From positions 23,673 through 87,672 of the forward strand of contig CAKSNY010000001.1 of the NCBI GenBank assembly GCA_934476455.1: a stretch of DNA of 64,000 nt. Reading direction: 5' to 3'. Positions within the stretch are counted from its first letter, which is position 1. Every line of letters starts with the position of its first letter. The notes beneath the pieces are model-generated. The model had not been told where the DNA came from. It ran no database searches and saw nothing but the letters and a program-made list of their open reading frames with translations. Made by a program: the position numbers and the translations under genes. This stretch comes from an uncultured Clostridia bacterium (GTDB taxonomy: Bacteria; Bacillota; Clostridia; UMGS1883). This document shows positions 5,090 to 61,027 of the stretch, in pieces.

Positions 5090-5112
5090 ACCGTTTCTAA
5101 ATGTTTTGCTGA

Positions 5113-5141
5113 TTGAAAAACACAGTTCAAAATGATATATT
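5113..5141 (+). promoter_or_regulatory. Candidate sigma-A type promoter (TTGAAA - 17 bp - TATATT) for the beta-helix hydrolase gene
   Basis: The -35 and -10 hexamers with a 17-bp spacer lie ~45 bp upstream of the start codon. Confidence 0.3.
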
Positions 5142-5182
5142 AACACTGCAAGACGGCAAAGAAAATCGAACGGGAGGGAGAA

Positions 5183-7843: not shown

Positions 7844-7885
7844 AGGCGTATAAAATATAAACAGAGAGGCGGAAGCTAAAGAAAT

Positions 7886-9265: not shown

Positions 9266-9329
9266 CGCTTTACTATACAGCACAGTTAGCTTATATACAG
9301 CTTGTACGCATCACGGGAGGGATTTTGTA

Positions 9330-11672: not shown

Positions 11673-11677
11673 TTGTG

Positions 11678-14824: not shown

Positions 14825-14843
14825 ATGGATGTGGGGTAGTAAT

Positions 14844-15791: not shown

Positions 15792-15819
15792 ACAGAATTA
15801 AAATATAGGAGGCAATTAT

Positions 15820-16701: not shown

Positions 16702-16730
16702 AAATAAATAAAAGAAAGGAAGAATAATTT

Positions 16731-27026: not shown

Positions 27027-27087
27027 AGCCTATAAAAAGGTTGGGATGAAATTTATTATTTCGTTCCAACCTTTTTATAGGCTCTAT
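27023..27087 (+). terminator. Perfect 22-bp inverted repeat (atagagcctataaaaaggttgg / ccaacctttttataggctctat) starting at the stop codon of the upstream gene; likely terminator or protein-binding palindrome
   Basis: Read directly from the sequence. The arms are 27023..27044 and 27066..27087 with a 21-nt loop. It marks the end of locus 1. Confidence 0.5.
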
Positions 27088-27201: not shown

Positions 27202-27230
27202 TTGAAATATTGTAATTATGGGATTAAAAT
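27202..27230 (+). promoter_or_regulatory. Candidate sigma-A promoter (TTGAAA - 17 bp - TAAAAT) upstream of locus 2
   Basis: Hexamers with a 17-bp spacing ~60 bp upstream of the 27293 start codon. Confidence 0.3.
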
Positions 27231-27292
27231 TATTTTGTAAGTGCCATATAGATGCGGCACTGAAAAGAAAGCAATTATTGAGGAGGATTATT

Positions 27293-33009: not shown

Positions 33010-33074
33010 ATTAGTGCCGGGCTTAATCAACGGAAAATGACTTTCCGGATATTGACCGAGAGGAGCAACAACAA

Positions 33075-34016
33075 ATGTCATCAATGCAAAAGAAATTATA
33101 CAAAGAATCATTTTGGGAGAGAGCGAAAAAGGATATAAAAAAGAACAAGGTTTTGTATTTGCTTGTATTATTACCGCTTGCATATTATATAGTATTTCAA
33201 TATGTGCCGATGTATGGGATAGTTATAGCATTTAAGCGATATATTCCTGCTCTTGGCATAAATGACAGTCCGTGGGTAGGATTCAGTCACTTCAAAAAGT
33301 TCTTTGAAAGCGTATATTTTTGGCGAATTTTGAAAAATACTTTCCGAATAAGCTTTTTCAGTATTATGTTCGGATTTCCCGCACCGATACTGCTTGCATT
33401 GCTTATAAACGAATTGTCGAATAAGTATTTTGTAAAAAGCGTGCAAACCATAACATACCTTCCGCATTTTGTTTCTATGGTTGTTATATGCGGCATAATA
33501 AAAAGCTTTACCGGAACAAACGGAATAATAACAAACATATTATCGTATTTTACGCATGATACTACTTCTGTGCTCATGCACCCGGAATATTTTACGGCGG
33601 TATATGTGTTATCAAATATATGGCAAGGGATAGGCTGGGGCTCAATAATCTATTTTGCCGCGCTGACAAATATCAATTCGGAATTGTATGAAGCGTGCGA
33701 AATAGACGGCGGCGGCAGACTACGCCAGGCAATCCATGTAACCATCCCGGGAATTTTGCCGACAATCATAATAATGCTTATTATGCGTGTGGGCAGTATA
33801 CTTAATGTAGGCTATGAGAAAATAATTTTGCTTTACAATCCGCTTACATATAAAACGGCGGATGTTATATCAACGTATGTTTACAGAAAAGGTCTTTTGG
33901 AAAACAACTACAGTTACGCAACGGCGGTAGGATTGTTTAATTCTGTTGTAAACGTTATCTTTTTGTGCCTTTGCAATAGGTTTTGCAGAAAGGTTTCAGA
34001 TACAAGCTTATGGTGA
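33075..34016 (+). CDS. Carbohydrate ABC transporter permease (LplB-like)
   Basis: Paralog of the 14844..15791 permease (LLVLLPLAYYIVFQYVPMYGIVIAFKRY, plus an EAA-loop region ACEIDGGGRLRQ). Confidence 0.85.
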   Translation: MSSMQKKLYKESFWERAKKDIKKNKVLYLLVLLPLAYYIVFQYVPMYGIVIAFKRYIPALGINDSPWVGFSHFKKFFESVYFWRILKNTFRISFFSIMFGFPAPILLALLINELSNKYFVKSVQTITYLPHFVSMVVICGIIKSFTGTNGIITNILSYFTHDTTSVLMHPEYFTAVYVLSNIWQGIGWGSIIYFAALTNINSELYEACEIDGGGRLRQAIHVTIPGILPTIIIMLIMRVGSILNVGYEKIILLYNPLTYKTADVISTYVYRKGLLENNYSYATAVGLFNSVVNVIFLCLCNRFCRKVSDTSLW

Positions 34017-34045
34017 CCTACCGATGCTCAGAGGAGAGAGAATAT

Positions 34046-34924
34046 ATGAAAAAATTAACTTTATCGCGCAAGGCGTTCCTTGTTTTTGATGTGACACTGC
34101 TGGCGCTTTTGATTGCAGTGTGCGCATATCCTCTTATCTATGTGCTGTTTGCTTCATTCAGCGACTCGAATTTACTTATCAAGCACAGCGGATTTTTGTT
34201 AAAACCGCTTGGGTTTAACATTATGTCATACAAGGCAGTGTTCAGCAACCCGATGATAGGAAAGGGATATTTAAACACCCTGTTTATACTGGTGGTAGGT
34301 GTAGCTATAAATATTATGATGACATCACTGGCAGCATATTTCCTTTCAAGGAGAAATGTTATGTTTAAAGCTCCCATTATGGCAATAATGCTTTTTACAA
34401 TGTATTTTTCCGGCGGTATTATTCCCAGCTATATTACAATTAAAAATTTGGGCTTGTACGATTCGCTATGGTCGCTTATTCTTCCCGTTTCAATCAGTAC
34501 ATATAACCTTATAATTATGCGTACATCTTTCCAGGGGATACCTGCAAGCCTTGAGGAAGCGGCATATCTTGACGGTGCAGGTCATTTAACAATAATACGT
34601 TATGTTATTTTGCCGCTTTCAAAGGCGATAATTGCCGTAATGGTATTATATTACGGTGTGGAATATTGGAACTCGTGGTTTAACGCAAGTATATATCTAA
34701 ACGACAGAAGCAAATATCCTTTGCAGCTTGTGTTAAGAGAAATATTACTGCAAAATGATATTTCAAATATGGCGGGCGGAGCTGAGGCAGGCGATGTGTA
34801 CAGTGTTGCCGAAAGTATTAAATATGCAGTAATCGTTGTTGCAACCTTTCCTATTTTATGTTTATATCCGTATTTGCAAAAATACTTTGTAAAGGGTGTA
34901 ATGATAGGCTCTTTGAAAGGATGA
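34046..34924 (+). CDS. Carbohydrate ABC transporter permease (LplC-like)
   Basis: Start trimmed to the ATG after GAGGAGAG. EAA motif EAAYLDGAGHLTIIRYVILPLSKA. Paralog of the 15820..16701 permease. Confidence 0.85.
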   Translation: MKKLTLSRKAFLVFDVTLLALLIAVCAYPLIYVLFASFSDSNLLIKHSGFLLKPLGFNIMSYKAVFSNPMIGKGYLNTLFILVVGVAINIMMTSLAAYFLSRRNVMFKAPIMAIMLFTMYFSGGIIPSYITIKNLGLYDSLWSLILPVSISTYNLIIMRTSFQGIPASLEEAAYLDGAGHLTIIRYVILPLSKAIIAVMVLYYGVEYWNSWFNASIYLNDRSKYPLQLVLREILLQNDISNMAGGAEAGDVYSVAESIKYAVIVVATFPILCLYPYLQKYFVKGVMIGSLKG

Positions 34925-34929
34925 TTTAT

Positions 34930-36675
34930 ATGTTGGCAAGTTGCTATTGCACTATAAGGAAATACATTCTGAAGAAAACGATATGCGGTGCGGTTGCTTT
35001 GCTTTTAGGAATTGCTTCCGTTATATCAAATGAAATTACCGCTGCAGCAGCGGTTTTGGATGCAGAATGGTCTGCTGATTATACTGATATGAAGCTGATA
35101 ATAAATGTGAATACATCCGCTCCATACATACAACAGATAACTGCAGTAATGTATCCTGCCGATATTACGGTGCCGACGTTTAATGACTATTCACGTGTCT
35201 GTGAAATTACGACAAATAAAAGCGGTAACAAAATAATTTTCGGAATTTATGACGACTTAAACGCTCCTGACGGGAAATACAAAATTGAACTGCGCGGGAA
35301 CGGATATATGGCAGAGCAATGTAAAAAAGACCTTGAGGTATATGTAATCTGTCCAAACAGAATAAAAGGTGCGGGAGGTCTTTTGGAAAGAGCAAATACG
35401 GAAAATTCATCGAACGGAATAAACGCGCTTATCGGAGAATTAAAAGATGGCCTTTTATTAACCGAGGAATCGGATAATGAAAGAAAAGAAATACGGGCAC
35501 AGGTGTTTGTCAATATCAGAAGCGACGACTTTAACGGCGCGTTTAAAAACCTCGATAATGTTAGGGAAGCCTGGCTCATTTCGGATATTTTGACGCATTT
35601 TAATGAAAGCTCGGCTTCAAAAGATTCTATAAAAGCAAAGATTGAACAGAATGCAGCCTTGCTGGATACAGATATTAACGACGCAGAGTACGATAAGTAT
35701 TCTGATGCGGTTTATTCAAGTATTTATACATTCAGAAATAATTATTGCAATAAAGGCATAAGATCATACACATTGTTAAAAAAATCTATAAAAGAGTTTT
35801 TGGCTCTTGCAATAATAAATGATTCCGATTTAGAGAACGGAAATTTAAAAAGCAACATAGAAACCTATTATAAAGACTTAGGCATACCCGAAGAATTATA
35901 TGCGCGTTATTCAAAGCTTGACAAATCAAACAAAGAGCTTGTTTTAAAACAGCTTTATCATAAAGACTTTGCAGATGGTACGGTTTTGCAAAAAGTATTC
36001 GGTGATGCAGTGGAGTATGTAGAAAAACAAGGTAATAAAAGTGATAATTCGGATAGCGGAAAATCATGGTCAGGCGGCGGTGGCGGTAGCTACAGCATTG
36101 CTTCGCCGAAGAATAACGAAATAAACACTGATGAATTTAGGTTTAATGATTGTCCTGAAACGCATTGGGCGTACAGTTATATAAAAAAACTGTGTAATAA
36201 AAATATTTTGTCGGGCTATGGGGACGGCAGCTTTTTACCGGAAAAAAATGTGAGTCGGGAAGAATTTGTGAAAATGATTATTTCCGCTGTCGGATTGTAC
36301 GACAAAGGTGCGGAATGTGAGTTTGCGGATGTTTCGAAAAGCAGCTGGAGCTACAGATATATTGCTTCTGCGCGTAATGCAGAGATCATTAACGGAATGA
36401 ATGATAATATATTCGGGGCGCAAAGCTTTGTAACACGTGAGGATGCCGCCGTTATCGCAAGTAGAGTTTTGAAAAGATTCGGTATAGATGCAGACGGTAT
36501 CGGAATTGTGTTTTCAGACGAAAATCTGATAAAGGATTACGCAAAGGAATGTGTTAATTCTCTCTCTGCGATGGGAATAATAACCGGTTATGAAGACGGA
36601 GGCTTTTATCCTCAGGGGAATCTTACCCGTGCACAGGCAGCAAAGATAATTTGTGAGATATGCCGCTATGTATAA
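34930..36675 (+). CDS. Cell-surface protein with N-terminal uncharacterised domain, helical region, Gly-rich linker and 3x C-terminal SLH domains
   Basis: Signal/TM segment ICGAVALLLGIASVI. WSGGGGGSYS linker. The SLH motifs are WAYSYIKKLCNKNILSGYGDGSF, WSYRYIASARNAEIINGM and YAKECVNSLSAMGIITGYEDGGF. The C-terminal half has the same architecture as the 9330..11672 protein. Confidence 0.7.
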   Translation: MLASCYCTIRKYILKKTICGAVALLLGIASVISNEITAAAAVLDAEWSADYTDMKLIINVNTSAPYIQQITAVMYPADITVPTFNDYSRVCEITTNKSGNKIIFGIYDDLNAPDGKYKIELRGNGYMAEQCKKDLEVYVICPNRIKGAGGLLERANTENSSNGINALIGELKDGLLLTEESDNERKEIRAQVFVNIRSDDFNGAFKNLDNVREAWLISDILTHFNESSASKDSIKAKIEQNAALLDTDINDAEYDKYSDAVYSSIYTFRNNYCNKGIRSYTLLKKSIKEFLALAIINDSDLENGNLKSNIETYYKDLGIPEELYARYSKLDKSNKELVLKQLYHKDFADGTVLQKVFGDAVEYVEKQGNKSDNSDSGKSWSGGGGGSYSIASPKNNEINTDEFRFNDCPETHWAYSYIKKLCNKNILSGYGDGSFLPEKNVSREEFVKMIISAVGLYDKGAECEFADVSKSSWSYRYIASARNAEIINGMNDNIFGAQSFVTREDAAVIASRVLKRFGIDADGIGIVFSDENLIKDYAKECVNSLSAMGIITGYEDGGFYPQGNLTRAQAAKIICEICRYV

Positions 36676-36696
36676 AATGGGGGAGGGCTAAATATA

Positions 36697-39366
36697 TTGA
36701 GAAAGATATATATTTGTTTTGCCGTAGTGGCGGTGTCGGTTTTACTGACGCTTTGCAATATTACGGGATATGCAAGCAGCACCGATACAACATATGACGA
36801 AAGCCTTTCTGCGCTTAACGCCATGGGGGTTTTAAACCTTCCGGATTCGGAAGGGGATAATCAAAATATTACACGTGCACAGTTTGCCGCAAATATTTTT
36901 AACATTGCGGGATATGAAAAGGTAAATCATCCGGCGGCGGATATACCGTTTTCGGATGTAAGTGTCGATTATGTGTATAAAGACGAGATATGCACACTTT
37001 ATGATTTGAAAATTATAAACGGTACGGAAAACGGATTCTTTTCACCCGAAGAACCTATAACATATGTACAGGCAGTTAAGCTTGCGGCAGACATACTTGG
37101 GTACAGAGAATATGTAAGCGTAAAATACGGAAAGTATCCAAACGGGTATATATCAGCCGCCTATGATTTAAAGCTGACAGACGGGATAAAATCTCCTGTA
37201 ACAGATATACCGTTAAACTTAAAGGATGCAGTTCGTTTTTTGTATAATACCGCGTGTTCTTTCGTTTCGGAGGGAGAGGAATATAAAACGAACGGAGGTA
37301 TAACATACGCAAAAGACAACAGAATGCTCATAACAAAGGGACATAATATTTATTACGGTGAAGGAGTTTTAAAAAGTAACGGGGTATGTGCGCTTACCGG
37401 TGTGACGCTGAAAAAGGGTCATACAGAAATAAACAATGAGGAATATATGATAGGAAAATGTGACGTTTTAAGCCTTCTCGGAAGCAAGGTAAAATATTTT
37501 TACAGAGAGGAAAAAGGCGGAAACGTTCTTTTGTGGGCGTCGGAGCATAAAAGCAACAAAACGCTGACAATAAACAGCCGTGACCTTATAACAGACGATA
37601 CCGATTACAGCGCGGAAAAAATAATATATTATGACAAAAACAAAAGAACAGCTGCCGAAATATCCCCGTTTGCAAGCATTGTTTATAACAATAAGCTGAG
37701 AAATATCACATGTGTTATAAAACCCGTTTCGGGTACTGTGAAACTTACGGATTCTGATGGGGACGGAAGATGGGAGACTGTGACCGTAAACGAATTTAAA
37801 AATATTTTTATTACAGGGATTTTGCCGAATGAAAAGGTAATTGCAGATAAATTCGGAAATACGGTTTGCCTTAATGATTATAAGAACGTAACGATAGTTA
37901 AAGAAGGCAGAAAGATAAACATAGAGGAAGTTCCGACGCGGGTTATTGCGTCATACACAGAGGATGAAGAAAAAGAAAGCATATATGTATATATATGCGA
38001 TGAAGGGGAGCTTGGCACTCTTGAAGCTGTAGGTGAGGAAAACGGAAAAAATATATACACATTCTCCGGAAAAGAAAAGAGAATTTCATACAGTTATTCG
38101 AAGATTATATCTGATGGAATTTATCCTGCGTGTGAACTGAAAATAGGGGAAAATTATAAATATTATACGGATATTTCGGGCGATATTGCCGAACTTGAAA
38201 ATCGCAACGACGGGAAAATCAGATACGCATATCTGATTGACGCGGCAAAAGATAATAAGGCAACGGCAAAAAGCTATGCTGCACTTGTAAAGCTTTTGCT
38301 TGACAATGGAGATATAATTATTGCAAAGGCAGAAAAAAACATAAAGATAAACAATGTTTCCGGTTTTACGGGTGAAGATCTACTGAATTGCCCATTTATT
38401 TCGGAAGGCGGGAAAATAAAACAGCAGGTTGTAAAAATTGCGTTTGGGCACGATGATAAGGTACTGGAGATACAGTTTGCGGAAGACAATACAAATTCTG
38501 AATATGGGTATAATTCAAATGTTTTTTCACTTGATTTCAGCTGTAATCAGATAGGTGAGCCAAGTTATTATTACGGTTCGAAGATCGACGCTTTTGCCGT
38601 TGACGGAAATGCAAAATATTTTGTTGCCGATGGCACAATCTGTTTTGTAAAATATTCTGATTCTCTGCAAGATGAGCCATATGCCGTAACAAGTGCATTA
38701 AATTTCGCGGACAAGGGTAGATATAATGTTGAGCTGTATGATTGCAACGAAAAAATGGAAATAGCTGCAATGAGTACGGTCAGAACACTTGGCGGCGTTG
38801 AAAACGCAATATTTGTTGTAGACAACGTGCGTTATGTTTTGGGTGAAAACGGAGAGAATTTAAAACAAGTAAGCGGCTACAAAAATGGAAATTATTTAAC
38901 GTATACAGAACTTTACGAAGATATAATTCCCGATGGACTGCAACGCGGAGATGCAATTAAGATAGGGATGTACAACGGAAAAATAAGCAGCTTTAAACAG
39001 ATTTGCAGCCTGAGACAGTATCCGGAAGCCTTTATAGAAGCGGACTCTGTCAGAGAGGATGGATTGCTTTTCGGACAATTATACTCTGTGGGAATTAACA
39101 ATATTGTTACCGTAGTTCCTGATTCCGAAAAGGCGGTATACGGAAAACTTGTATCGTCATCATTGGCTGAAATATGGGCAAATCCGGTGTATATTACGAT
39201 ATATAATTGTGCGGACGACACAATTTCAAAGGGAGAACTGAGAGATATTTTGCCCGCCGGCGGACCTGATAATAACGGCGATTTGCCCGCAGACGGCAGA
39301 AAAATAATGGCATTGCTTAATAAAACAAAAGGTTATGCGCGTGATATAGTTGTAGTGTATTATTAA
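36697..39366 (+). CDS. Large secreted SLH-domain protein (N-terminal SLH-like repeats + ~700-aa uncharacterised region); paralog of 44450..47077 and 11678..14824
   Basis: TTG start after GGGGGAGGG. A signal peptide is present. The N-terminal SLH-like repeats are LSALNAMGVLNLPDSEG and YKDEICTLYDLKIINGTENGFF. The conserved C-terminus ends RDIVVVYY. Confidence 0.6.
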   Translation: MRKIYICFAVVAVSVLLTLCNITGYASSTDTTYDESLSALNAMGVLNLPDSEGDNQNITRAQFAANIFNIAGYEKVNHPAADIPFSDVSVDYVYKDEICTLYDLKIINGTENGFFSPEEPITYVQAVKLAADILGYREYVSVKYGKYPNGYISAAYDLKLTDGIKSPVTDIPLNLKDAVRFLYNTACSFVSEGEEYKTNGGITYAKDNRMLITKGHNIYYGEGVLKSNGVCALTGVTLKKGHTEINNEEYMIGKCDVLSLLGSKVKYFYREEKGGNVLLWASEHKSNKTLTINSRDLITDDTDYSAEKIIYYDKNKRTAAEISPFASIVYNNKLRNITCVIKPVSGTVKLTDSDGDGRWETVTVNEFKNIFITGILPNEKVIADKFGNTVCLNDYKNVTIVKEGRKINIEEVPTRVIASYTEDEEKESIYVYICDEGELGTLEAVGEENGKNIYTFSGKEKRISYSYSKIISDGIYPACELKIGENYKYYTDISGDIAELENRNDGKIRYAYLIDAAKDNKATAKSYAALVKLLLDNGDIIIAKAEKNIKINNVSGFTGEDLLNCPFISEGGKIKQQVVKIAFGHDDKVLEIQFAEDNTNSEYGYNSNVFSLDFSCNQIGEPSYYYGSKIDAFAVDGNAKYFVADGTICFVKYSDSLQDEPYAVTSALNFADKGRYNVELYDCNEKMEIAAMSTVRTLGGVENAIFVVDNVRYVLGENGENLKQVSGYKNGNYLTYTELYEDIIPDGLQRGDAIKIGMYNGKISSFKQICSLRQYPEAFIEADSVREDGLLFGQLYSVGINNIVTVVPDSEKAVYGKLVSSSLAEIWANPVYITIYNCADDTISKGELRDILPAGGPDNNGDLPADGRKIMALLNKTKGYARDIVVVYY
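36742..37703 (+). repeat. Copy A of a ~962-bp near-identical direct repeat (copy B at 44507..45468)
   Basis: Nucleotide comparison gives a constant offset of 7765 bp across the repeat, with only two substitutions seen on spot checks. It encodes the identical N-terminal ~320 aa of the paralogs, and the six-frame track shows identical antisense ORFs at 37076..37312 and 44841..45077. Confidence 0.85.
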
Positions 39367-39383
39367 GAAAGCAGGTAACAAAT

Positions 39384-42077
39384 ATGAGAAAAGCACAACG
39401 ATTTTTATGTATATTTTTTATAATCGGTATGTTTACAGTGCTATTTAACGGCAATACTGCTCAATCGGTATATGATGCGGAATGGAAGAGCATTTATGTA
39501 CAGGATTTTTCGTCAGAGGTAAACCTCGATAAAACGGAGAATACATCGTTTTTTTCGGTAAAAACAGACGGCAGTTTAAATGTAAGCTCGCACAGCATCT
39601 GTCAATTTGCCGTTAACAGTGAAAACCTGTCATCCGGTGAGAATTGTATAGGTATAAGTGTTGCATACCCTAATGCACGTATAACAAGGCTGCCGCAGCC
39701 GCTTGAATTTGAAGGTATTATGTATGAATATACCGGAAGCGGAAACAATACACACTTCATTGAGGAAATAGATGGTAAAAAGGCACTTAAGCTGTTTACA
39801 TACATCAATGCCGGCAAATACGGAACATCAGATGACAAAAGTGTGGTTCTTAGAACAAATTCTCCGAGACTTAGTGTTGAAGACGGTCATTTTACAAGTG
39901 AAGATAATTCTGTAACGGTCGAGATTGAATGTTACAGTACAGCTCAAAACGATGAAGACAACTGTTTACGTATTTACTATCCTAATACGCAAGGAGTTAC
40001 AAAAGCGTATACAATAACGCAGCAGAAAATGCGCGAAAAAGGAGACGGATGGGTTAAATTCGTAATAAACTTAACAGATGTAGATCTGACAAAAAAGCTT
40101 GGAGAGGGAAACACGTTTAAGATTTTAGAGGACAATTATTCGAGCAATGTAAATTATATTCACAGTTTTAAAGTTTATAAAACACCCGATACATCTGCGG
40201 ATGACGTTTCATTTACGGAGAATGACAAGTCGGTATCATTAAGCTTCGGTGACCGGGCGGTAGTTGGAAATGTGCGGGCTAAGTTTGACGTTCTTATTCC
40301 GAGCGGGGACACTGTGTCAAACACAATACCGTTTAACACGGGAAGTAATGCAATAAGAGCCGGTCTTCTGGATAAAAATAAAAATGCAGCACTTCTTTTT
40401 GAGATCAATCTTAACGACAATCGCACAGAAGCTGACAGCGGACGAATATATGTACTTTACGGCGACGGTGACGGTGCAGAAAATAAAAGACTGATTTATA
40501 CCGGAAACTTATACGGCAGGACGCTATCCTTTTCGGCAGAAACAAATCGAGAAGAAAAAACATTTTCAGCGAAAATTTTTGACAGCGGTGAAGAGCTTTT
40601 CTCGGGAGAAGATTTTACAGGTGGACTGCTTAATTCAAATTCGTATGAGGATATACAGTACTTCACCGTTATACAAAGCGGGTTGTCACACGCGGTTATG
40701 TGTGCAGCAGATAATATTTCAATAGAAGCACAGCAAATAATGGATTATAGTTATTGTGCTGAGGACTGTGCTGCCATTGAGAAGCTTATGCCTAAAAGTG
40801 GAGCGGATGTAACAGAAAATATTCAGCTTCCTACTATTGGTGAGATTCACCAAAGCAGTATAACATGGGAAAGCAGCAACACAAATGCGGCAGAAATAGT
40901 GAACGGCAGTCTATTGCTGCTAAAGCGAAATGAAAAAAATGAAAATGTAACAATTAAGGCAACTGTTGTCTGCGGGTGCGCTGTTTTAACAAGGGAGTTT
41001 GATTATTGCATTTTAGGTGTTGGAAAAATATATTCCGATATTACAGCGGATATTAAAAAATCTGTTTCAGAGTCTTTGGCGGAGAACGGCACTATTACCG
41101 CAAGTCTGAAATTTAACAACTATAAAATAACCGGACGAATTACGTTTGCGGCAGTCGTGTCCAATAAAATCACGGGAGAAAAAGTCGGAACATATACCGA
41201 TGTAAAAAATATTTCAACGACTTATCAGGATAACAGTTTTTGTATAGAAAATATAGTAAAGGGAGAAAATGACGATATAGAATATTATTTATGGGATGAA
41301 AACAATGTGTCTCTGAGAAATAATGCTCCTACGGATATAGAAAATATTTTGTGCACAGCGAAAGCAAAGGCTGTTCATTTGTCCTGGGAGCAAAGCTATG
41401 ATGATAATGAAGCAACTGTATATGAAATATATCGTAACGGAGTATTTATTAAAGAAACGGAAGAGTGTTCATATATAGATAAAAGCGTAAAGCAAGATAC
41501 AAATTATAATTATGAGGTAAAGGTAAGAGATACCAATAGGAATTCTGCAAACGGCGCTGTTCTATCAGCAAAAACGAAAAAAATGCTTTCGTGGAATGAA
41601 GGGACACAAGACGGTGTTGAAACCGTAGCTGTAACAGACCCTGAACGTGCGGCGTACAGCATAAAGACAACAGTTTCAGACAGTAACGAAAACACCTCAA
41701 CTTGTATGTGCGCGCCGCCCTCCAAACGATCCGGCGGCGGGGCGTATGCCATATTCTTCAAAGCTCCGAAAATAGGTAATGCAAATGATATTGCCGTTGA
41801 AGTAACATATTTAGACACTGATGGGTATCTTAATATGTCATATACCGAAATACGCCCTGATGGTGCATTGGAAAGTACATCGTACAATAAAAATGTGCGC
41901 CTTGTAAATTCTATGACAAATACGCGTACGTGGAAAACAATTACATATGTTTTGCATGGCGCACAATTCAGGCAATCAACGAATATGTCTTTGGCGGATA
42001 TTGGATTCAGTGCGGGTGCAGACAAGTATCTTTATATTAAAAAAATTGCTGTTATTGCGGAAGAAGATTATGAATGA
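39384..42077 (+). CDS. Secreted hypothetical protein with FN3-like domain and N-/C-terminal 'YYDYG'-type modules
   Basis: A signal peptide is present. FN3-like segment AVHLSWEQSYDDNEATVYEIYRNGVFIKETEECSYIDK. The C-terminal module (IAVEVTYLDTDGYLNMSYTE ... YLYIKKIAV) resembles the terminal modules of the 28805..31450 protein. Confidence 0.5.
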   Translation: MRKAQRFLCIFFIIGMFTVLFNGNTAQSVYDAEWKSIYVQDFSSEVNLDKTENTSFFSVKTDGSLNVSSHSICQFAVNSENLSSGENCIGISVAYPNARITRLPQPLEFEGIMYEYTGSGNNTHFIEEIDGKKALKLFTYINAGKYGTSDDKSVVLRTNSPRLSVEDGHFTSEDNSVTVEIECYSTAQNDEDNCLRIYYPNTQGVTKAYTITQQKMREKGDGWVKFVINLTDVDLTKKLGEGNTFKILEDNYSSNVNYIHSFKVYKTPDTSADDVSFTENDKSVSLSFGDRAVVGNVRAKFDVLIPSGDTVSNTIPFNTGSNAIRAGLLDKNKNAALLFEINLNDNRTEADSGRIYVLYGDGDGAENKRLIYTGNLYGRTLSFSAETNREEKTFSAKIFDSGEELFSGEDFTGGLLNSNSYEDIQYFTVIQSGLSHAVMCAADNISIEAQQIMDYSYCAEDCAAIEKLMPKSGADVTENIQLPTIGEIHQSSITWESSNTNAAEIVNGSLLLLKRNEKNENVTIKATVVCGCAVLTREFDYCILGVGKIYSDITADIKKSVSESLAENGTITASLKFNNYKITGRITFAAVVSNKITGEKVGTYTDVKNISTTYQDNSFCIENIVKGENDDIEYYLWDENNVSLRNNAPTDIENILCTAKAKAVHLSWEQSYDDNEATVYEIYRNGVFIKETEECSYIDKSVKQDTNYNYEVKVRDTNRNSANGAVLSAKTKKMLSWNEGTQDGVETVAVTDPERAAYSIKTTVSDSNENTSTCMCAPPSKRSGGGAYAIFFKAPKIGNANDIAVEVTYLDTDGYLNMSYTEIRPDGALESTSYNKNVRLVNSMTNTRTWKTITYVLHGAQFRQSTNMSLADIGFSAGADKYLYIKKIAVIAEEDYE

Positions 42078-42119
42078 ATGGACGATAATTATAATTTAAC
42101 CATGTTGATAAAGTGAGGA

Positions 42120-44453
42120 TTGCACCTAATGAAGAGAACGAAAATTAAAGAATTTTTTTCAAGCGACTTTTTCGGAACGATAATGGTTACGTTTTTTTCA
42201 ATATTTGCTATTCCAATGTTATCCGGTATAATTGCGCTTCATTTTGACGAAAACGCAATAAAGAAAGAGCTTGCGGAATCTGATAAAATAATGGTTACAA
42301 CCGTGCAGCAGCATATTGAAAGGCAGCTTGCAACAATTACATCAGCGGCGACCTCTGTTTCACACGATGCAAAAATAAGAGAAATTTCCGAAACGACAGG
42401 AAATGACCCGTACGAAACGGAAGTTTTAAGCAAAACCAATCAGCTGGCAAAATCATTATCCAAATATTTGGAGGTAGAAAAAAGCATAGACAATGTATAT
42501 GTTGTTTTTGGAAAAAAGGGAATTGTCGTTTCGCCTACAATGGTTGAAACAAACGAAAGCTTTTTTGAAAAATACTATAGAGAATCCGATTTTTTATTAA
42601 GTAAGTGGAATAGCATTTTAAACAGAAAATCTTACGGACAGTATTCAATAGTTTATGAAAATGAAAAAAAATATATTGATTTTTATTTTAGCAACTCCCT
42701 GATTTCAAAAAGAAATAATTCGGGTGAAACAATAGTTGTCAGAATTTCGGAAGCAGAATTCGGTAATTATGTATCCAAATTTCATTCCTTTACGGATAAG
42801 CAAATTTGTGTAATTGATAAAAACAACGATGTTGTACTGAATTATGGTGACCGCATATTAAAAAATTACAATTATGATAGCTACAACTCGATTATGAAAG
42901 CAGAAAAAACGGATGATTTTACGTATACAATGGCAAAATCGGGAAGCAACAACTGGAAGTATGTGTTGTCGACAAGCGATAAATATATTCAAAAAAAGGT
43001 ATATTACAATAGAATGTTGGTAATTGTAAATGTTCTGATTTATTTAATTGCTGCCATTATAGTTGTAAGTATATATATGGTAAAAAACTATATTCCGTTA
43101 AGAAGGATAATCAGTAAAGCAGACGGATGCAGTGCAAACAGTTATGATGCTCTTGAAAAAGTTGTATCGGAATATAATTGGTACAAGACATATGCACTGC
43201 GGTATAAAAGGCAGTATAACAAGGTGCAGACAGAGCAGTTTTTCTACAATATTGTTTCGTTTAACAGAAATCCGAAGGAAATTAAAAAGATAGCAGAACA
43301 TCTCAAAATAAGTCTTGTGTCGGATATGTTTACAGTCATACTGATAGACATATGTGATTATGAAAAATTATTTGAAGATGACGAAATTGACGAGGCTGAG
43401 CGCGTGGCGAGTGCGGAGTTAATAGTCAGAAATATTTTTGGTGAGCTTCTTTCTTCCATAGGCGTAGCATATTTCCTTTTGAAAGATGACAAGCAAATTT
43501 GTATACTGAATTTAAAAAATGAGGAAAACTGGAAACAGCGCGTGGCGGAAATTTTGCATAACGGTAAGGATGTAATCCAAGAACATTTTGAAATACCAGT
43601 GACAGTTTGCATAAGCAGATTGTCAGAAGGCTTGGAAAACCTGCGTAATGCCTACGTTGAAACTGTTGAAACCAATATGAAGCATTGGCTTGCCGTTGAT
43701 AACGAGATTGTGTTCTGCGAGCCTGTATCTGCAATTCATAATAAAACATATTACGATTGTTCAGATGCTGAAAAAATTCTTTCCTTTATAAAAAAAGGAG
43801 AAAAGGCACGCGGTATTGAACAAATGAAAAATACAATCAGGCGCTGTGCGAGTGACTCTGACTACGGAGAAGGAAAGGCAAAGATGTTTTCCGTGAAATT
43901 GATTGACGGTATTTATGATTATATATCCGAAGAAATAGAACCCGACAATAGGTTTTATGCAATTGTAAATCGGGTTTTATTGTTTAAATCATATGATGGT
44001 TATATTGCAGCGTTAGAGGAAATCATCAGATATGCGTGCAATATTCAGAATTTGAACAGTGTAGGCAGTATCTCAAAAACCGAGAAAGTATCGGCTGAAA
44101 ATATGGTTGAAACTATAAAGTCGTATATTTCCGCAGAGTATACTGACAGTACACTGAGCTTAACACGTATTGGTGAATATATGGGTATTACACCGTATTA
44201 TGTTTCACATACCTTCAAAAAGGTAACAGGTGAAAATCTTTCAGATTATATAAGTCGCTTCCGTATTGAGAAGTCAAAGGATGTTATATGTAACAATGAT
44301 AGAATTTCATCTGCACGTCTTGCGGAAATGGTCGGTTTTGGCAGCGAACGTACTTTTATACGGATGTTCAATAAATTCGAGAATGTTTCGGTAGGGCAAT
44401 ATAAGGCAATGCTTAGGAAAGATGATTATATTGAGAAAGGAAAGCAACAATGA
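42120..44453 (+). CDS. Transmembrane sensor AraC-family regulator (TM1 - extracytoplasmic sensor domain - TM2 - cytoplasmic domain - AraC HTH)
   Basis: Two hydrophobic helices (FGTIMVTFFSIFAIPMLSGIIAL and MLVIVNVLIYLIAAIIVVSIYMV) flank a ~260-aa extracytoplasmic segment. The C-terminal AraC HTH is LTRIGEYMGITPYYVSHTFKK ... GFGSERTFIRMFNKFENVSVGQYK. Confidence 0.8.
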   Translation: MHLMKRTKIKEFFSSDFFGTIMVTFFSIFAIPMLSGIIALHFDENAIKKELAESDKIMVTTVQQHIERQLATITSAATSVSHDAKIREISETTGNDPYETEVLSKTNQLAKSLSKYLEVEKSIDNVYVVFGKKGIVVSPTMVETNESFFEKYYRESDFLLSKWNSILNRKSYGQYSIVYENEKKYIDFYFSNSLISKRNNSGETIVVRISEAEFGNYVSKFHSFTDKQICVIDKNNDVVLNYGDRILKNYNYDSYNSIMKAEKTDDFTYTMAKSGSNNWKYVLSTSDKYIQKKVYYNRMLVIVNVLIYLIAAIIVVSIYMVKNYIPLRRIISKADGCSANSYDALEKVVSEYNWYKTYALRYKRQYNKVQTEQFFYNIVSFNRNPKEIKKIAEHLKISLVSDMFTVILIDICDYEKLFEDDEIDEAERVASAELIVRNIFGELLSSIGVAYFLLKDDKQICILNLKNEENWKQRVAEILHNGKDVIQEHFEIPVTVCISRLSEGLENLRNAYVETVETNMKHWLAVDNEIVFCEPVSAIHNKTYYDCSDAEKILSFIKKGEKARGIEQMKNTIRRCASDSDYGEGKAKMFSVKLIDGIYDYISEEIEPDNRFYAIVNRVLLFKSYDGYIAALEEIIRYACNIQNLNSVGSISKTEKVSAENMVETIKSYISAEYTDSTLSLTRIGEYMGITPYYVSHTFKKVTGENLSDYISRFRIEKSKDVICNNDRISSARLAEMVGFGSERTFIRMFNKFENVSVGQYKAMLRKDDYIEKGKQQ

Positions 44454-47077
44454 TAATCTCTAAAAAACAAAGACATCATTTATACGCTGCGGTAACGGTT
44501 ATTTTATTACTGACGCTTTGCAATATTACGGGATATGCAAGCAGCACCGATACAACATATGACGAAAGCCTTTCTGCGCTTAACGCCATGGGGGTTTTAA
44601 ACCTTCCGGATTCGGAAGGGGATAATCAAAATATTACACGTGCACAGTTTGCCGCAAATATTTTTAACATTGCGGGATATGAAAAGGTAAATCATCCGGC
44701 GGCGGATATACCGTTTTCGGATGTAAGTGTCGATTATGTGTATAAAGACGAGATATGCACACTTTATGATTTGAAAATTATAAACGGTACGGAAAACGGA
44801 TTCTTTTCACCCGAAGAACCTATAACATATGTACAGGCAGTTAAGCTTGCGGCAGACATACTTGGGTACAGAGAATATGTAAGCGTAAAATACGGAAAGT
44901 ATCCAAACGGGTATATATCAGCCGCCTATGATTTAAAGCTGACAGACGGGATAAAATCTCCTGTAACAGATATACCGTTAAACTTAAAGGATGCAGTTCG
45001 TTTTTTGTATAATACCGCGTGTTCTTTCGTTTCGGAGGGAGAGGAATATAAAACGAACGGAGGTATAACATACGCAAAAGACAACAGAATGCTCATAACA
45101 AAGGGACATAATATTTATTACGGTGAAGGAGTTTTAAAAAGTAACGGGGTATGTGCGCTTACCGGTGTGACGCTGAAAAAGGGTCATACAGAAATAAACA
45201 ATGAGGAATATATGATAGGAAAATGTGACGTTTTAAGCCTTCTCGGAAGCAAGGTAAAATATTTTTACAGAGAGGAAAAAGGCGGAAACGTTCTTTTGTG
45301 GGCGTCGGAGCATAAAAGCAACAAAACGCTGACAATAAACAGCCGTGACCTTATAACAGACGATACCGATTACAGCGCGGAAAAAATAATATATTATGAC
45401 AAAAACAAAAGAACGGCTGCCGAAATATCTCCGTTTGCAAGCATTGTTTATAACAATAAGCTGAGAAACAGTTCTCAAATAAAACCAAAGACAGGAAATA
45501 TAAAGCTTGTTGATAACAACAATGACGGAAGCTACGACACGGTAGTTGTTACTGAATTTAAAAATATGTTTGTTGTCAGCGTTTCGCAAAAAGGAAATTT
45601 CATATCAGACAGTTATAACCATAGCTTAAATCTTGATGATTACAATAATATATATATTTATGAAAATGGCGTACAGATATACCTTGATGATATAGGCAGT
45701 AAACGAATAATTTCATATGTAACAGATGCTGAAAAGGAAAATTTGTATATTTACGTATGCAAAAAGGGGGTGGAGGCAACCTTAGATGCTATCGGTGAAA
45801 AAAGTGGAAAAACAGTATACGAATTTAACGGAAAAGAACTTTATATGTCAGAGGAATATTTAAGTATCGGCGAAAATAATTACAACACAGTATTGCCAAA
45901 GGTGGGTGTAAGGTACTTGTACTATACAGATATTGCCGGAGATATTGCGGAAATAACGGAGGTATCCGGTAATATTTTGGAATATGCTTATTTGATAAAC
46001 GCTGCAAAGGATTCAAGACCGCTTGCAAAAGACAATTCGGCAGCGCTAAGGCTGCTTATGACAGACGGTAATATTATAACAGCATATACCGCAAAAGATA
46101 TTATTATTGACGGCGTAGGAAAAAAGAACGGCAGTGATATTCTTTCGGACAACAGGCTAAACACAGCAGCAGGCTTTAACGAACAGGTCATTAAGGTGCG
46201 CTTTACAAGCAGCGGAGAGTTAAAGGAAATCTGTTTTCCGGAAAATTGTAAATCGGAATACGGGTACGATGTAAAAAATTTTACAACTGATTTTGACGGT
46301 ACTGCAACATTTACGACAAATCGTCAGATTTACACATTTAACTATAAGTACAGCATATATCCGAACACAATTATTTTTGCAAGGTATGATAATATAAATG
46401 TAGATGAACCATACGCTGTTATTGATTACAATGCTCTCAAAGGAATAAAAAGGGCAAGGTTATACGATTGTGATAAAACCCTTTCGCCTTCGGTTGTTGC
46501 GGTTGAGCTGAACGGAGAAGTATACAGCGAAAATATGATTTTGGTTGACAATATAAAATACGAACAACAACAAGACGGTAATTTTTATAAAAAAATATAT
46601 GGTTACAGTTACGGAAAACCGTACGACTGTGTTGAGTATTACGAGGGTGTTATACCTAACGACTTAAAGCGCGGAGATGTTGTACGTGCTGCGCTTTTGG
46701 AACGAAGGGTTGTAAAAATTGAAAAAATAGTAAGCTTAAGTGAACCTCCCGCTCCGCGGCTGGACAATCTTGCAAGCAGCAATTTTTCAATAATTGTCGG
46801 GGAACTGTATGCTATAAGCGAACATGGAATAGTTACATTAAACCCCATAAATACGGCAAGCAGATTGACAACGTCTGCATATTCGTCTCAAACGAGCGGT
46901 CAACTGCAGATTTATGATACGGTAAATGATATAATACGCCCCGCTTTGTTTACAGAAATTATGCCGATTACACTGCCCTATTCGGACGGAACGCTTTGTC
47001 AAAACAACGGCAGTTTATGGGTTGTATTGTATAGAAAATATGAACATTTGAGAGATGCCATTGCGGTTTATTATTAA
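44450..47077 (+). CDS. Large secreted SLH-domain protein; paralog of 36697..39366 (N-terminal 320 aa identical), with a divergent C-terminal region
   Basis: See the repeat feature. The C-terminus ends RDAIAVYY, as in the paralogs. Confidence 0.6.
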   Translation: MIISKKQRHHLYAAVTVILLLTLCNITGYASSTDTTYDESLSALNAMGVLNLPDSEGDNQNITRAQFAANIFNIAGYEKVNHPAADIPFSDVSVDYVYKDEICTLYDLKIINGTENGFFSPEEPITYVQAVKLAADILGYREYVSVKYGKYPNGYISAAYDLKLTDGIKSPVTDIPLNLKDAVRFLYNTACSFVSEGEEYKTNGGITYAKDNRMLITKGHNIYYGEGVLKSNGVCALTGVTLKKGHTEINNEEYMIGKCDVLSLLGSKVKYFYREEKGGNVLLWASEHKSNKTLTINSRDLITDDTDYSAEKIIYYDKNKRTAAEISPFASIVYNNKLRNSSQIKPKTGNIKLVDNNNDGSYDTVVVTEFKNMFVVSVSQKGNFISDSYNHSLNLDDYNNIYIYENGVQIYLDDIGSKRIISYVTDAEKENLYIYVCKKGVEATLDAIGEKSGKTVYEFNGKELYMSEEYLSIGENNYNTVLPKVGVRYLYYTDIAGDIAEITEVSGNILEYAYLINAAKDSRPLAKDNSAALRLLMTDGNIITAYTAKDIIIDGVGKKNGSDILSDNRLNTAAGFNEQVIKVRFTSSGELKEICFPENCKSEYGYDVKNFTTDFDGTATFTTNRQIYTFNYKYSIYPNTIIFARYDNINVDEPYAVIDYNALKGIKRARLYDCDKTLSPSVVAVELNGEVYSENMILVDNIKYEQQQDGNFYKKIYGYSYGKPYDCVEYYEGVIPNDLKRGDVVRAALLERRVVKIEKIVSLSEPPAPRLDNLASSNFSIIVGELYAISEHGIVTLNPINTASRLTTSAYSSQTSGQLQIYDTVNDIIRPALFTEIMPITLPYSDGTLCQNNGSLWVVLYRKYEHLRDAIAVYY
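44507..45468 (+). repeat. Copy B of the ~962-bp direct repeat
   Basis: See copy A. Confidence 0.85.
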
Positions 47078-47108
47078 ACTGTATTAGAATGTGCGGAAAG
47101 GAAAAGAA

Positions 47109-48656
47109 ATGAAATACATATTTAAAATGGAAGAACACGAGCTCTGGTGGGGAGGTACTTCCACTGACGGGATTATTTCCCCGTTTGATAAATCTACGGT
47201 ATTAAAACACGATTTTAGGGTTTTGGCAGATAATCAATCAATGCCTATGTATATTTCAAATATGGGAAGATGTATTTGGTCTGAAGAACCGTTTGAGGTA
47301 AGCTTTTTAAGCGGTGAAATTAAGATTATAGGAAAAGACGTAATAATTGAAAAATTCGGAAATACATTAAGAGATGCATATACGGGTGCGTCAAAAAAAT
47401 ATTTTCCTCAAAAGGGTGAAAAATTACCGGAGAAGTTTTTTACAACGCCGCAATACAACACATGGATGCAGCTTGTATACGACCAAAGCCAAAAAGGTGT
47501 AATGGATTACGCAAAAAATATTATAAAGAACGGATTTGCCCCCGGAATTTTAATTATAGACGAGGGCTGGCAAAAAGATTACGGAAAGTGGCAGTTTGAT
47601 GAAATAAAATTCCCGGAACCAAAAAAAATGATTGATGAACTCCACGCTATGGGCTTTACTGTTATGCTGTGGGTTGTACCTTTTGTGGGAACGGACGGAA
47701 AAGATTATGCCATGCGTGTATTTAAGGGACTTTCACCCGATAAATACCAACAAAACTTTTTGCGAAATGAAAATGGGAAACCTTTAATAACAGAATGGTG
47801 GAACGGTTACAGTTCTATTTTAGATTTCACAAATGAATATGACAAAGAATATTTAGATTCACAGCTGCAATCGCTTATTGATGAATTTTCTATAGACGGC
47901 TTTAAATTTGACGGGGGATGTCTTGCCAGCTATTGTGATACACGTGCTGTAAACGGTCCGATTAACAAGATGTACACACCTGCGCAAAGAAATATAGCAT
48001 GGAATGAGTTCGGGCTTAAGTACAGTTATCATGAATATAAAGATACTTTTAAGGGCGGTGGGAAAAGGTGCATTCAAAGACTATTTGATAAATTTCACAG
48101 TTGGGACAACAACGGACTTAATACGCTTATCCCGAATGCTTTGTCAGCCGGGTTAATGGGCTATCCTTTTATATGCCCTGATATGATAGGCGGGGGCGAA
48201 TGGACTATTCGTGAAAATAATCAGAGGGTAGATATGGAGCTTTTTGTACGAATGGCGCAATGCAGCGCACTTTTCCCGATGATGCAGTTTTCTTGGGCGC
48301 CTTGGGAAGCTGTGGATAAACAGCATTTAAAGTATATAAAGGATGCACACGACCTTCATATAAGATTTGCGGATAGATTCAGAGCATTGGTTGAACAGTG
48401 CTATAAAGATAACGAGCCTGTTTTAAGAAGCCTTGAATACAATTATCCGCATTGCGGATTTGAAAGGGTGAAAGATATGTTTATGCTGGGAAATGATATC
48501 TTAGCCGCACCTGTTATCGTAAAAGGGCAAAAGGTTAGAAAGGTAACGCTTCCGCAAGGAAAATGGAAAGGTTTTAACGGAATTGAATATTATGGCAATA
48601 AAACATATGAAATACCGGTAACACTTGCAGATACAGTTTATTTCACCAAAATGTGA
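47109..48656 (+). CDS. GH31 family glycoside hydrolase (short form; alpha-glucosidase/alpha-xylosidase/alpha-galactosidase-like)
   Basis: IDGFKFDGG matches the GH31 nucleophile region (compare YicI VDCFKTDFGE). IIDEGWQ is also characteristic. No signal peptide. Start chosen at the ATG after GGAAAGGAAAAG. Confidence 0.6.
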   Translation: MKYIFKMEEHELWWGGTSTDGIISPFDKSTVLKHDFRVLADNQSMPMYISNMGRCIWSEEPFEVSFLSGEIKIIGKDVIIEKFGNTLRDAYTGASKKYFPQKGEKLPEKFFTTPQYNTWMQLVYDQSQKGVMDYAKNIIKNGFAPGILIIDEGWQKDYGKWQFDEIKFPEPKKMIDELHAMGFTVMLWVVPFVGTDGKDYAMRVFKGLSPDKYQQNFLRNENGKPLITEWWNGYSSILDFTNEYDKEYLDSQLQSLIDEFSIDGFKFDGGCLASYCDTRAVNGPINKMYTPAQRNIAWNEFGLKYSYHEYKDTFKGGGKRCIQRLFDKFHSWDNNGLNTLIPNALSAGLMGYPFICPDMIGGGEWTIRENNQRVDMELFVRMAQCSALFPMMQFSWAPWEAVDKQHLKYIKDAHDLHIRFADRFRALVEQCYKDNEPVLRSLEYNYPHCGFERVKDMFMLGNDILAAPVIVKGQKVRKVTLPQGKWKGFNGIEYYGNKTYEIPVTLADTVYFTKM

Positions 48657-48734
48657 TATGAAATACCACGGTGAAAATATAAGGCAGAAAATAAAAAAAG
48701 ATATTTTAATATGCAGACAGAAAGGCTGAAAATA

Positions 48735-49829
48735 ATGAATACATACAAGAGTGCTCTTGAATATGCAAAAATGTGCTGTGATACAATTATGCGCAAATTC
48801 CCTGCAAAGGAGCTTCCGCCCAAAGGAAGATTTCATTACCACGCGGGGGTGTTTTTGTCCGGTATGGAAAGATGCTTCCTTCTAAATGGAATGGAAAAAT
48901 ATAATGAATATATAAAGGCTTTCATAGACGAGTTTGTTGATAATAACGGAAAACTTAACAATGCTAATTTGGAAAAATTAGACGATATGCAGCCTTGTAA
49001 TTTGATGTTCCGCTACTGTAACCGGGATGACAGATATAACAAAGTGCTTGACAGTGTTGTGCCGCGCCTGCTTACATGGAAAACAAATAAGTACGGCGGA
49101 TTTTGGCACATGGGAGATACACCTGATCAAATGTGGCTTGACAGCCTTTATATGGGCGGTCCGTTAGCTGTCAGATATGGACTTTCGAGGGGTAAGCGCG
49201 AATATATAGAACTAATTCATAAGCAAATGGAACTTATGTTTAAAAATATGCGTAATAAAAAAACAGGGCTTTTGTACCATGCGTGGGATTGCAGTAAAAA
49301 AGAATTATGGGCAAATCATGAAAACGGTTGTTCGGGCTTTTTCTGGGGCAGAGCAATTGGATGGGTAATTGTTGCAACAGCAGATATTGCCGAATATCTC
49401 GGAGACGACGTTCTCGCACGAAGCTTTATGGATCGTGCGGTCGAACTTACTATGGCAGTTTTAAAATATCAGGATCCAAAAAGCAATTTATGGTTTCAGG
49501 TTGTGGACAAGGGAGATGATCCTGATAATTGGACGGAAACATCGTGTTCGTGCCTTTTCTTATACGGTTTGTGTAAACTGATAAGAATGGGAGCTATTGA
49601 CAATAAGTATATAGAAAGAGCAGAAAAAGCTTTTCACGGAATTATAAAAGAAAAAACGTATGAAGAAAACGGAAATTTTATTGTAAAGGACATATGTATA
49701 GGAACCGGCGTCGGAGATTATAAACACTATATAGAGCGTCCAACGGTTGAAAATGATTTGCACGGAACAGGGGCATTTACACTTATGTGTACGGAATATG
49801 AAAAAATGCAGCGTAAGTGGGAGAAATAA
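48735..49829 (+). CDS. GH105/GH88 family unsaturated rhamnogalacturonyl/glucuronyl hydrolase (YteR/YesR-like)
   Basis: QMWLDSLYMGGP matches the catalytic Asp region of the YteR family. The (alpha/alpha)6-type composition and the ~365-aa size fit. Confidence 0.7.
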   Translation: MNTYKSALEYAKMCCDTIMRKFPAKELPPKGRFHYHAGVFLSGMERCFLLNGMEKYNEYIKAFIDEFVDNNGKLNNANLEKLDDMQPCNLMFRYCNRDDRYNKVLDSVVPRLLTWKTNKYGGFWHMGDTPDQMWLDSLYMGGPLAVRYGLSRGKREYIELIHKQMELMFKNMRNKKTGLLYHAWDCSKKELWANHENGCSGFFWGRAIGWVIVATADIAEYLGDDVLARSFMDRAVELTMAVLKYQDPKSNLWFQVVDKGDDPDNWTETSCSCLFLYGLCKLIRMGAIDNKYIERAEKAFHGIIKEKTYEENGNFIVKDICIGTGVGDYKHYIERPTVENDLHGTGAFTLMCTEYEKMQRKWEK

Positions 49830-58759: not shown

Positions 58760-58878
58760 AAATAGGGGCATGCAGCAAAACAGTGCAGCCCCACAAGCAG
58801 ATAATTATAAAAATTTTTTAAATATGCATAATTGTGATAGAAAAACGCACATTGCGGTGATACAATCAAGCCGGACAG

Positions 58879-59682: not shown

Positions 59683-59769
59683 AATAAACACCTCACATTC
59701 TTTAGAAATGGTAACACAAATAATATAAATAGTCAAGCATCAGAAATTTACTGTAAGGAGAGTAGGATT

Positions 59770-60590: not shown

Positions 60591-61027
60591 TTTGAGGGGA
60601 TAGGAAAAAAGCTCCAGAACGGACAAACTGAATCCGAAGATGTATATAACAGGGCATCCCGAAAACCAAAGGTTTTTGGGAAAAAGGAGAAACAGCGTAA
60701 TGAGTGAACAGCAAATTGAAATTTGCTGCGAACGATACATCGCTGATTTCGACGCCCGAGAGATGAAGTTTGTTCGTAGCAAAAAGCTTATAAATACTGA
60801 AAAATCGAATATAATGAGATTTTTCTACCAAAATCGAGTTTTTAAACTGTTTTGCAGTTACAAATCTTTAATTATAATTGCTTTTTGCGTTCTGGGCTTT
60901 TTAACATCCCCGTTTCTTAGCAGATAATTATAAAATATATATATTTGGGCGAAATTATGATAGAAAATAGAAAAATCCGATGTTAAAATTATTGTAAATA
61001 ATATGCGGAAGAGGAGCTGATAATGGC

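Follow-up and report, generated by a model that had tools for sequence, protein, structure and literature searches.

A near-identical 962-bp module shared by two otherwise divergent surface-protein genes of an uncultured gut Clostridia bacterium

In the sap system of Campylobacter fetus and the slpA/slpB system of Lactobacillus acidophilus, a conserved anchoring segment shared by surface-protein genes serves as the substrate for recombination, with reversible inversion taking place around a single promoter and with other copies being kept as promoterless silent cassettes. In Geobacillus stearothermophilus, sbsC and sbsD are said to be identical over an N-terminal stretch of about 310 residues, which binds a secondary cell-wall polymer, to be very different over the rest of their length and to be exchanged by DNA rearrangement; reportedly, only a single one of the genes is active at any time, and chromosomal and megaplasmid copies take part in the rearrangement. 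Work on S-layer variation in this species, involving sbsC/sbsD and sbsA/sbsB (Egelseer et al. 2001; Scholz et al. 2001), is cited in two further papers (PMC3919590; PMC2943079). Concerted evolution in prokaryotes has been surveyed generally (PMC6053082), and domain-limited gene conversion has been described between mtrA-1 and mtrA-2, two paralogs found in one operon of methanogens (PMC4632066). Here, a locus that recalls these systems is considered in a stretch of 64,000 nucleotides (hereafter, the window) from an uncultured human-gut Clostridia bacterium (GenBank assembly GCA_934476455.1, contig CAKSNY010000001.1, positions 23,673 to 87,672). In the window, two same-strand genes, termed gene A and gene B, encode paralogous surface proteins that share a near-identical 5' module and differ over the remainder of their length. 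Recurrent gene conversion between the two genes, limited to this module and keeping it homogeneous, is the favored explanation, to which a probability of roughly 0.7 is assigned.

In-register self-comparison of the window at an offset of 7,765 bp revealed copy A of the repeat (36742-37703, + strand) and copy B (44507-45468, + strand) to be identical at 960 of 962 bases (99.8%), exactly at the positions and within the >99% identity given in an earlier reading of the sequence letters, referred to below as the original prediction. Only two bases differ, namely, 37650 and 37665 (909 and 924 when counted from the start of the repeat); both differences are synonymous, and the two copies encode the same protein sequence. 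Beyond the repeat, in-register identity falls to 14-56% per 50-bp block. When the genes were instead aligned in a codon-aware manner, both edges of the repeat appeared as a cliff, at which identity drops from 100% to about 50% at the nucleotide level and to 25-45% at third codon positions. The repeat was the sole large near-identical one reported by a repeat scan of the 64-kb window, and it cannot have arisen by chance. Its GC content (39.3%, as compared with 36.7-38.4% in the unique parts) and its GC content at third codon positions (37.8%, as compared with about 34%) stand apart by a gap too small for interpretation.

The repeat lies wholly within open reading frames (ORFs), where it makes up the 5' third of each gene. 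Gene A (36697-39366, + strand), encoding an SLH-anchored surface protein of 889 amino acids, begins with a TTG codon behind a ribosome-binding site, GGGGAGGG, at 36680-36687, while its paralog, gene B (44450-47077, + strand; 875 amino acids), begins with an ATG codon preceded by AAGGAAAG. Copy A corresponds to codons 16-335 of gene A and copy B to codons 20-339 of gene B, with the first 15-19 codons of the two genes being unlike. The proteins are colinear along their full length. As had been proposed, the paralogous sequence outside the module has diverged, to about 50% identity at the nucleotide level and, over the C-terminal 536-554 residues, to 34.5% at the amino-acid level. A start codon, a ribosome-binding site and a signal peptide are present separately for A and for B, and no convincing terminator was found between the genes of the A-to-B array. 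Judging from sequence, both genes appear to be expressed and are probably co-transcribed.

In both proteins, Pfam detected one SLH motif (residues 84-123 of A; 34.9 bits vs. a cut-off of 20.8). In the AlphaFold model of A (mean predicted local distance difference test score, 77.5), residues 30-186 are helical and the remainder that follows is all-beta. Foldseek matched residues 30-186 to the SLH trefoils of Bacillus anthracis Sap (3pyw, 6bt4) and Paenibacillus alvei SpaA (6cwc and others) with a probability of 1.0 and with target-normalized TM-scores of 0.69-0.85, at a sequence identity of 18-19%. On the strength of the model, this part of A is a predicted three-motif SLH trefoil, the first motif of which contains the sequence ITRAQF, resembling the TRAE motif of SLH domains. 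As so modeled, the repeat encodes the hydrophobic core and cleavage region of the signal peptide, the trefoil as a putative wall anchor, and the first beta domain. By contrast with this match, the beta-rich remainder of A, some 700 residues in length, yielded no convincing match to solved structures in the Foldseek search. The likeness to SLH-anchored Gram-positive surface proteins such as Sap and SpaA lies in the N-terminal three-motif trefoil; the difference lies in the low sequence identity, with binding of a pyruvylated wall polymer by the A/B module being a prediction.

The family to which A and B belong is rare: in a search of 5.8 billion sequences, no more than about 13 related clusters were found, none of them named, and no relative of protein A was found in the GTDB species representatives. 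The protein clusters included nine full-length variants of A and seven of B, as well as two hybrids of 871 residues, filed in the B cluster and considered below. Single-copy relatives from two other organisms, namely, P0003 (on contig L011) and the product of a gene on contig L095, were present on recovered contigs. These share 39-43% identity with the module and 38-40% identity with either C-terminal part. Being about equally distant from the module and from the C-terminal parts, these outgroups reveal that the module is not slow-evolving. As such, strong purifying selection was rejected as the source of the near-identity of the two copies, since in the outgroups the module diverges at the same pace as the remaining sequence and since synonymous sites are identical too. 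Rather, identity at synonymous sites in a module that is not otherwise conserved points to recent homogenization. By these comparisons, the split between A and B is roughly as old as their split from P0003 and the L095 protein, such that segments of the same genes have discordant histories, with the module being 99.8% identical and the rest showing 34.5% amino-acid identity and saturated third codon positions. The recent gene conversion raised in the original prediction is accordingly retained as the best reading, with two old paralogs having had their 5' part homogenized. Contig L011 (Logan SRR14399411) carries, in this order at 4341-15832, a sugar-binding protein gene, the P0003 gene, homologs of the two genes that lie between A and B in the window (genes C and D, described below) and two permease genes. 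It has no second SLH paralog, and its gene order and copy number are unlike those of the window.

Seven further full loci (L005-L010 and L093) were compared with the window; several sample names among the contigs point to Hadza gut metagenomes. All seven appear to be products of short-read assembly, as do the other assemblies used, given their metaSPAdes-, MEGAHIT- and Logan-style contig names. Each of the seven keeps both copies. Across strains, the repeat contains 24 variable sites that define two clear haplotype groups, differing at eight or more well-separated sites and consistent, over at least seven separated sites, across nine assemblies (three and six, respectively). Strains differ at up to 15 of the 962 sites, whereas only 0-2 of 962 separate copy A from copy B of the same genome. 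The two copies of any given genome always fell into one group, and no mosaics were seen in the nine assemblies. In agreement, strain-specific changes, namely, G53R, F68L, A81E, D82N and L104M, were present in both proteins of the same contig. Such consistent haplotypes, together with the lack of mosaics, exclude the random merging of copy-specific variants as their source. Because each of the two groups is homogenized, at least two conversion events would be implied, albeit from assemblies that cannot phase the copies. Thus, paralogs within a genome are closer than orthologs between genomes, a pattern that is in part forced by short-read collapse of the repeat interior.

All phased differences between A and B of any genome were found in the frayed 3' edge of the repeat (37637-37703, + strand; repeat positions 896-962), and more precisely between positions 896 and 936, these being positions 909 and 924 in the window and 896 and 936 in L005. 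At position 936, copy B of L005 carries the allele of the other haplotype group, which matches the downstream flank, itself close to that group. This looks like a conversion tract that stopped short of the edge. Separately, the variable sites were unevenly distributed with respect to their effect on the protein. At 36853-37036 (repeat nucleotides 112-295; residues 53-114), seven of eight variable sites are nonsynonymous (G53R, F68L, P79S, A81E, D82N, L104M and F114L), whereas synonymous changes predominate elsewhere in the repeat, the overall split being about 12:12. Either diversifying selection on the anchor or the import of variation could account for this pattern in the SLH-motif stretch.

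Independent data confirmed that the repeat is present at the level of reads. The Logan contig L092 (k = 31; SRR29134189) is 6,863 bp long, corresponding to the 6,803 bp of unique sequence between the copies plus 2 x 30 bases, and maps to window positions 37674-44536, thus ending exactly k-1 = 30 bases within each repeat copy. Such end points reflect branching of the de Bruijn graph at both repeat edges, meaning that both junction types are found in the raw reads. Gene C also occurs on two more Logan contigs, 6,863 and 6,872 bp in length. These observations bear on the possibility that the repeat was made by an assembler that mixed strains or loci and so pasted the 5' part of one gene onto the other. 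Repeats longer than the insert size are indeed error-prone, and the copies of the window are identical to those of ENA metagenome scaffold ERZ28614144 scaffold_137, which carries the exact A and B proteins. Yet the same architecture is seen in metaSPAdes-style contigs, in MEGAHIT contigs, in those of a third pipeline and in Logan contigs, the Logan contigs place both junctions in raw reads, the copies in the window differ at two phased sites, and both ORFs are intact and colinear with their homologs. A pure assembly artefact was therefore rejected, such an origin being considered very improbable. The related concern that the repeat is an assembly-collapse hazard was borne out, with Logan and MEGAHIT contigs breaking at or inside it.

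Several observations nonetheless weigh against recurrent conversion as the source of the homogenized module. Identity does not decay gradually beyond the repeat edges, and a single replacement event would leave the same picture. No related species with two A/B copies was found: L011 has one copy, and a search with an alignment of three sequences yielded a single short contig, from JGI, bearing one gene. Moreover, short-read graph collapse partly imposes the interior identity of the copies, which should be taken as an upper bound. In the graph, the two 962-bp copies come to share a single node through which the path runs two times. Interior differences are thereby merged, and a variant can be assigned to its copy only where unique sequence is no further off than roughly the length of a k-mer or a read, which is exactly where differences are seen. 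Collapse of this sort can be discerned in pairs of assemblies with near-identical flanks, with L008 and L010 differing at 5 of 885 interior sites vs. 0 of 11,303 flank sites (p = 2e-6), L004 and L005 at 3 of 885 vs. 1 of 4,500, and L006 and L007 at 3 of 885 vs. 5 of 11,303. Likewise, the MEGAHIT loop contig L094, which contains the segment between the copies, reaches about 305 bases into copy A, with its first 141-mer ending beside variable site 798, as placed by coordinate arithmetic. This suggests that some copy-specific variants are hidden by collapse. Finally, reads were probably re-used by several assemblies (27,482 vs. 27,504 bp; 176,542 vs. 176,587 bp; and L093, the sequence of which is that of L005), such that there are fewer independent genomes than contigs. 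Considered together, L008, L009 and L010 show no differences over 11.3 kb of flanks and 1-5 differing sites inside the repeat, likely reflecting copy-specific variants that were merged differently in each assembly. True identity between the copies within a genome is probably about 99.2-99.8%.

The same observations would suit a single recent replacement of the module, in which, in the ancestor of these strains, either the 5' 962 bp of one paralog were copied once over the other or a gene was duplicated and its 3' part then replaced, with the identity seen since then being due to assembly collapse. The cliff-like edges lacking any gradient, the L011 species with one A-like gene, which makes the arrangement lineage-specific, and the hidden copy-specific variants indicated by the flank-identical assemblies and by L094 are all in line with such an event. 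It would, however, leave unexplained why each of two haplotype groups occupies both copies with no mosaics in nine assemblies, for which at least one conversion per lineage is needed. In addition, with flanks of about 50% identity, a single replacement would require two illegitimate joints, in frame and at exactly homologous codons, and the phased differences are restricted to the 3' edge. This explanation is thus viewed as unlikely.

Recurrent conversion could be brought about by RecA-type homologous gene conversion between same-strand copies lying 7.8 kb apart, in which one copy would repeatedly overwrite the other. The module would then evolve in concert and the C-terminal two-thirds of the proteins would diverge freely. 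As conversion tracts begin and end in homologous DNA, they would be confined to the module, leading to sharp edges and to the few real differences being found at the 3' edge. Were both genes expressed, two different C-terminal parts would be displayed on the same anchor, and there may be a selective reason for the anchors being kept identical. The finding is real and is well explained by a known process. A close parallel is offered by mtrA-1/mtrA-2, in that paralogs in the same operon have one homogenized domain and differ elsewhere, and in that paralogs within a genome are closer than orthologs between genomes. The A/B case differs in being observed within one species-level strain group and by short-read metagenome evidence, and in that the homogenized part is a predicted surface anchor rather than a catalytic domain. 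As such, the locus provides a clean example of domain-limited homogenization, in which a putative wall-anchor module is kept the same as the exposed parts diverge, in a rare and uncharacterized surface-protein family of an uncultured human-gut bacterium.

Recombination between the repeats could also proceed by crossover instead of conversion. This would delete 7,765 bp and generate an in-frame hybrid of the 5' part of A and the 3' part of B, with the C-terminal part of A and genes C and D being lost. The original prediction had held that such a deletion would fuse the paralogs, and the exact predicted fusion is present in public data. The two 871-residue proteins noted above, P0025 and P0026, consist of the first 15 residues of A, the shared module and the C-terminal part of B, and the contigs that encode the hybrids, L003 and L004, align colinearly with the window once a deletion of exactly 7,765 bp is allowed for, the missing sequence comprising the unique segment and one repeat copy. 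That these fusions reflect real deletion is less well borne out, with only one of the two contigs arguing for it. L004 (metaSPAdes-style name, ERZ4560255) has a coverage of 2.56x, and its flanks differ at one site in 4,500 bp from those of L005, which comes from the same sample number (2273) and contains the full locus. Accordingly, L004 is probably the result of the loop being skipped in a low-coverage assembly. L003 (ERZ27287099) was assembled with MEGAHIT from a distinct strain. MEGAHIT reports contigs as unbranched paths. L094 apparently belongs to the same series as L003, given its neighboring ERZ accession and k141 naming, and breaks inside the repeat with the loop present. That L003 is unbroken and L094 is broken suggests that the loop is absent or rare in the L003 sample, and L003 may represent a true deletion.

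Should some hosts truly carry the deletion, it would offer strains a simple means of coming to differ in their surface proteins and in how glycan utilization is regulated. A one-way switch, in which RecA-mediated deletion has become dominant in some gut hosts, converting A to the A::B hybrid and removing D and C, would alter surface display and regulation of the glycan-utilization operon in one step, yet is judged improbable. Slightly less probable still is a switch operating at the population level, in which frequent and selected deletion would swap the C-terminal part displayed under the signals of A and remove C and D. The two fusion contigs differ in their sample and assembler of origin, the unbranched MEGAHIT path of L003 suggests that most cells of the species in that sample are without the loop, and S-layer variation in G. 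stearothermophilus, as cited in PMC3919590, serves as precedent. Against this stand the low coverage of L004 and the match of its flanks to the full locus of L005, as well as the failure to find the reciprocal hybrid (the 5' end of B joined to the 3' end of A) among the 20 proteins listed for the two clusters. Furthermore, no recombinase family was detected among those window ORFs scanned with Pfam, no invertible orientation was seen, no silent cassette was found at the A/B locus, and loss of the segment would be irreversible.

It is also in this respect that the locus departs from the known variable surface-protein systems, such that its likeness to sbs and sap is one of architecture only. 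In contrast to the sap and slp systems, the A/B repeats are direct, with no inverted copy in the window and no inverted repeats reported for the 962-bp element by the repeat scan, A and B are each equipped with translation signals, and deletion is the only rearrangement open to them. Hence, neither a single expression site fed by silent cassettes nor reversible rearrangement was encountered here. Unlike in G. stearothermophilus, A and B are complete, adjacent and probably co-transcribed. The proposal that the repeats serve surface-protein variation consequently found no backing, in that nothing indicates a programmed mechanism. Nor is the repeat part of a mobile element or composite transposon, a candidate that was rejected because the repeat is in-frame SLH coding sequence, with no transposase among the scanned ORFs and no terminal inverted repeats reported.

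The locus equally illustrates a trap of short-read metagenomics. Contigs break at such a repeat, and chimeric "fusion" genes such as those encoding P0025 and P0026 can enter protein databases. At the same time, a collapsed repeat makes the copies seem more identical than they may be and strains seem more variable than they are.

The unique segment between the copies (37704-44506, + strand; 6,803 bp), which forms the loop in the assembly graph, contains the 3' two-thirds of gene A together with genes C and D. In agreement with the original prediction, these two genes encode a secreted protein and a membrane-spanning AraC-type regulator, respectively. Gene C (39384-42077, + strand) encodes 897 residues with a signal peptide, an aBig_2 domain and a weakly matching RGI-lyase beta-sheet domain. 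The product of gene D (42120-44453, + strand), for which public calls place the start at 42129 (774 residues), contains HTH_18 and a GGDEF_2-like domain. Genes D and B share the bases ATGA (44450-44453), in which the D stop codon and the B start codon, an ATG, overlap, suggesting that the surface-protein gene is translationally coupled to the gene for its regulator.

Upstream of gene A, a sugar-binding protein gene and two permease genes (31447-34924) are followed by a gene encoding a protein with three C-terminal SLH motifs (34858-36675, + strand), directly before A and apparently in the same operon. Downstream of gene B are genes encoding GH31 and GH88 glycoside hydrolases (47091-49829, + strand), which directly follow the A::B hybrid in the fusion contigs. 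With its sugar-binding protein, two permeases, SLH-anchored proteins (including a GH28 enzyme) and GH31, GH88, GH36 and GH2 genes, this is, by predicted gene content, a Gram-positive glycan-utilization region. The GH36 gene of the window had its best matches among GTDB species representatives at 57-64% identity, in metagenome-assembled genomes of uncultured Clostridia, Ruminococcus and Ructibacterium. The species is thus absent from the representatives searched, and these matches place it only roughly, in Clostridia.

The window in fact holds two related glycan-utilization modules, of which only the A/B pair is homogenized. At 11669-14824 (+ strand) lies the gene for a third and more remote paralog, 1,051 residues long, which shares 24-27% identity with A and B and has an additional F5/8 type C domain. 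It is part, together with 14829-18308, of a second transporter cluster, the permeases of which are 40-52% identical to those encoded at 33075-34924.

Three further repeats were noted elsewhere in the window. A 281-nucleotide inverted repeat (4452-4732 and 9487-9767; 70% complementarity) corresponds to the 5' parts of two divergent paralogs, at 2355-5033 (- strand) and 9171-11672 (+ strand), the proteins of which are 48% identical over about 290 residues; this pair is not homogenized. At 27023-27087, an inverted repeat with 30-nucleotide arms that are 93% complementary and 5 nucleotides apart occupies the gap between a DUF4432/aldose-epimerase gene (26025-27026) and the ORF at 27218-28768, and could be a terminator or regulatory hairpin. 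Lastly, two AT-rich stretches of 71 nucleotides that are 72% alike (58796-58866 and 60919-60989) lie outside long ORFs. The first precedes the ORFs at 58879-59736 (- strand) and 59452-60540 (+ strand) and the second precedes that at 61028-62374 (+ strand), such that the two could be related promoter or operator regions.

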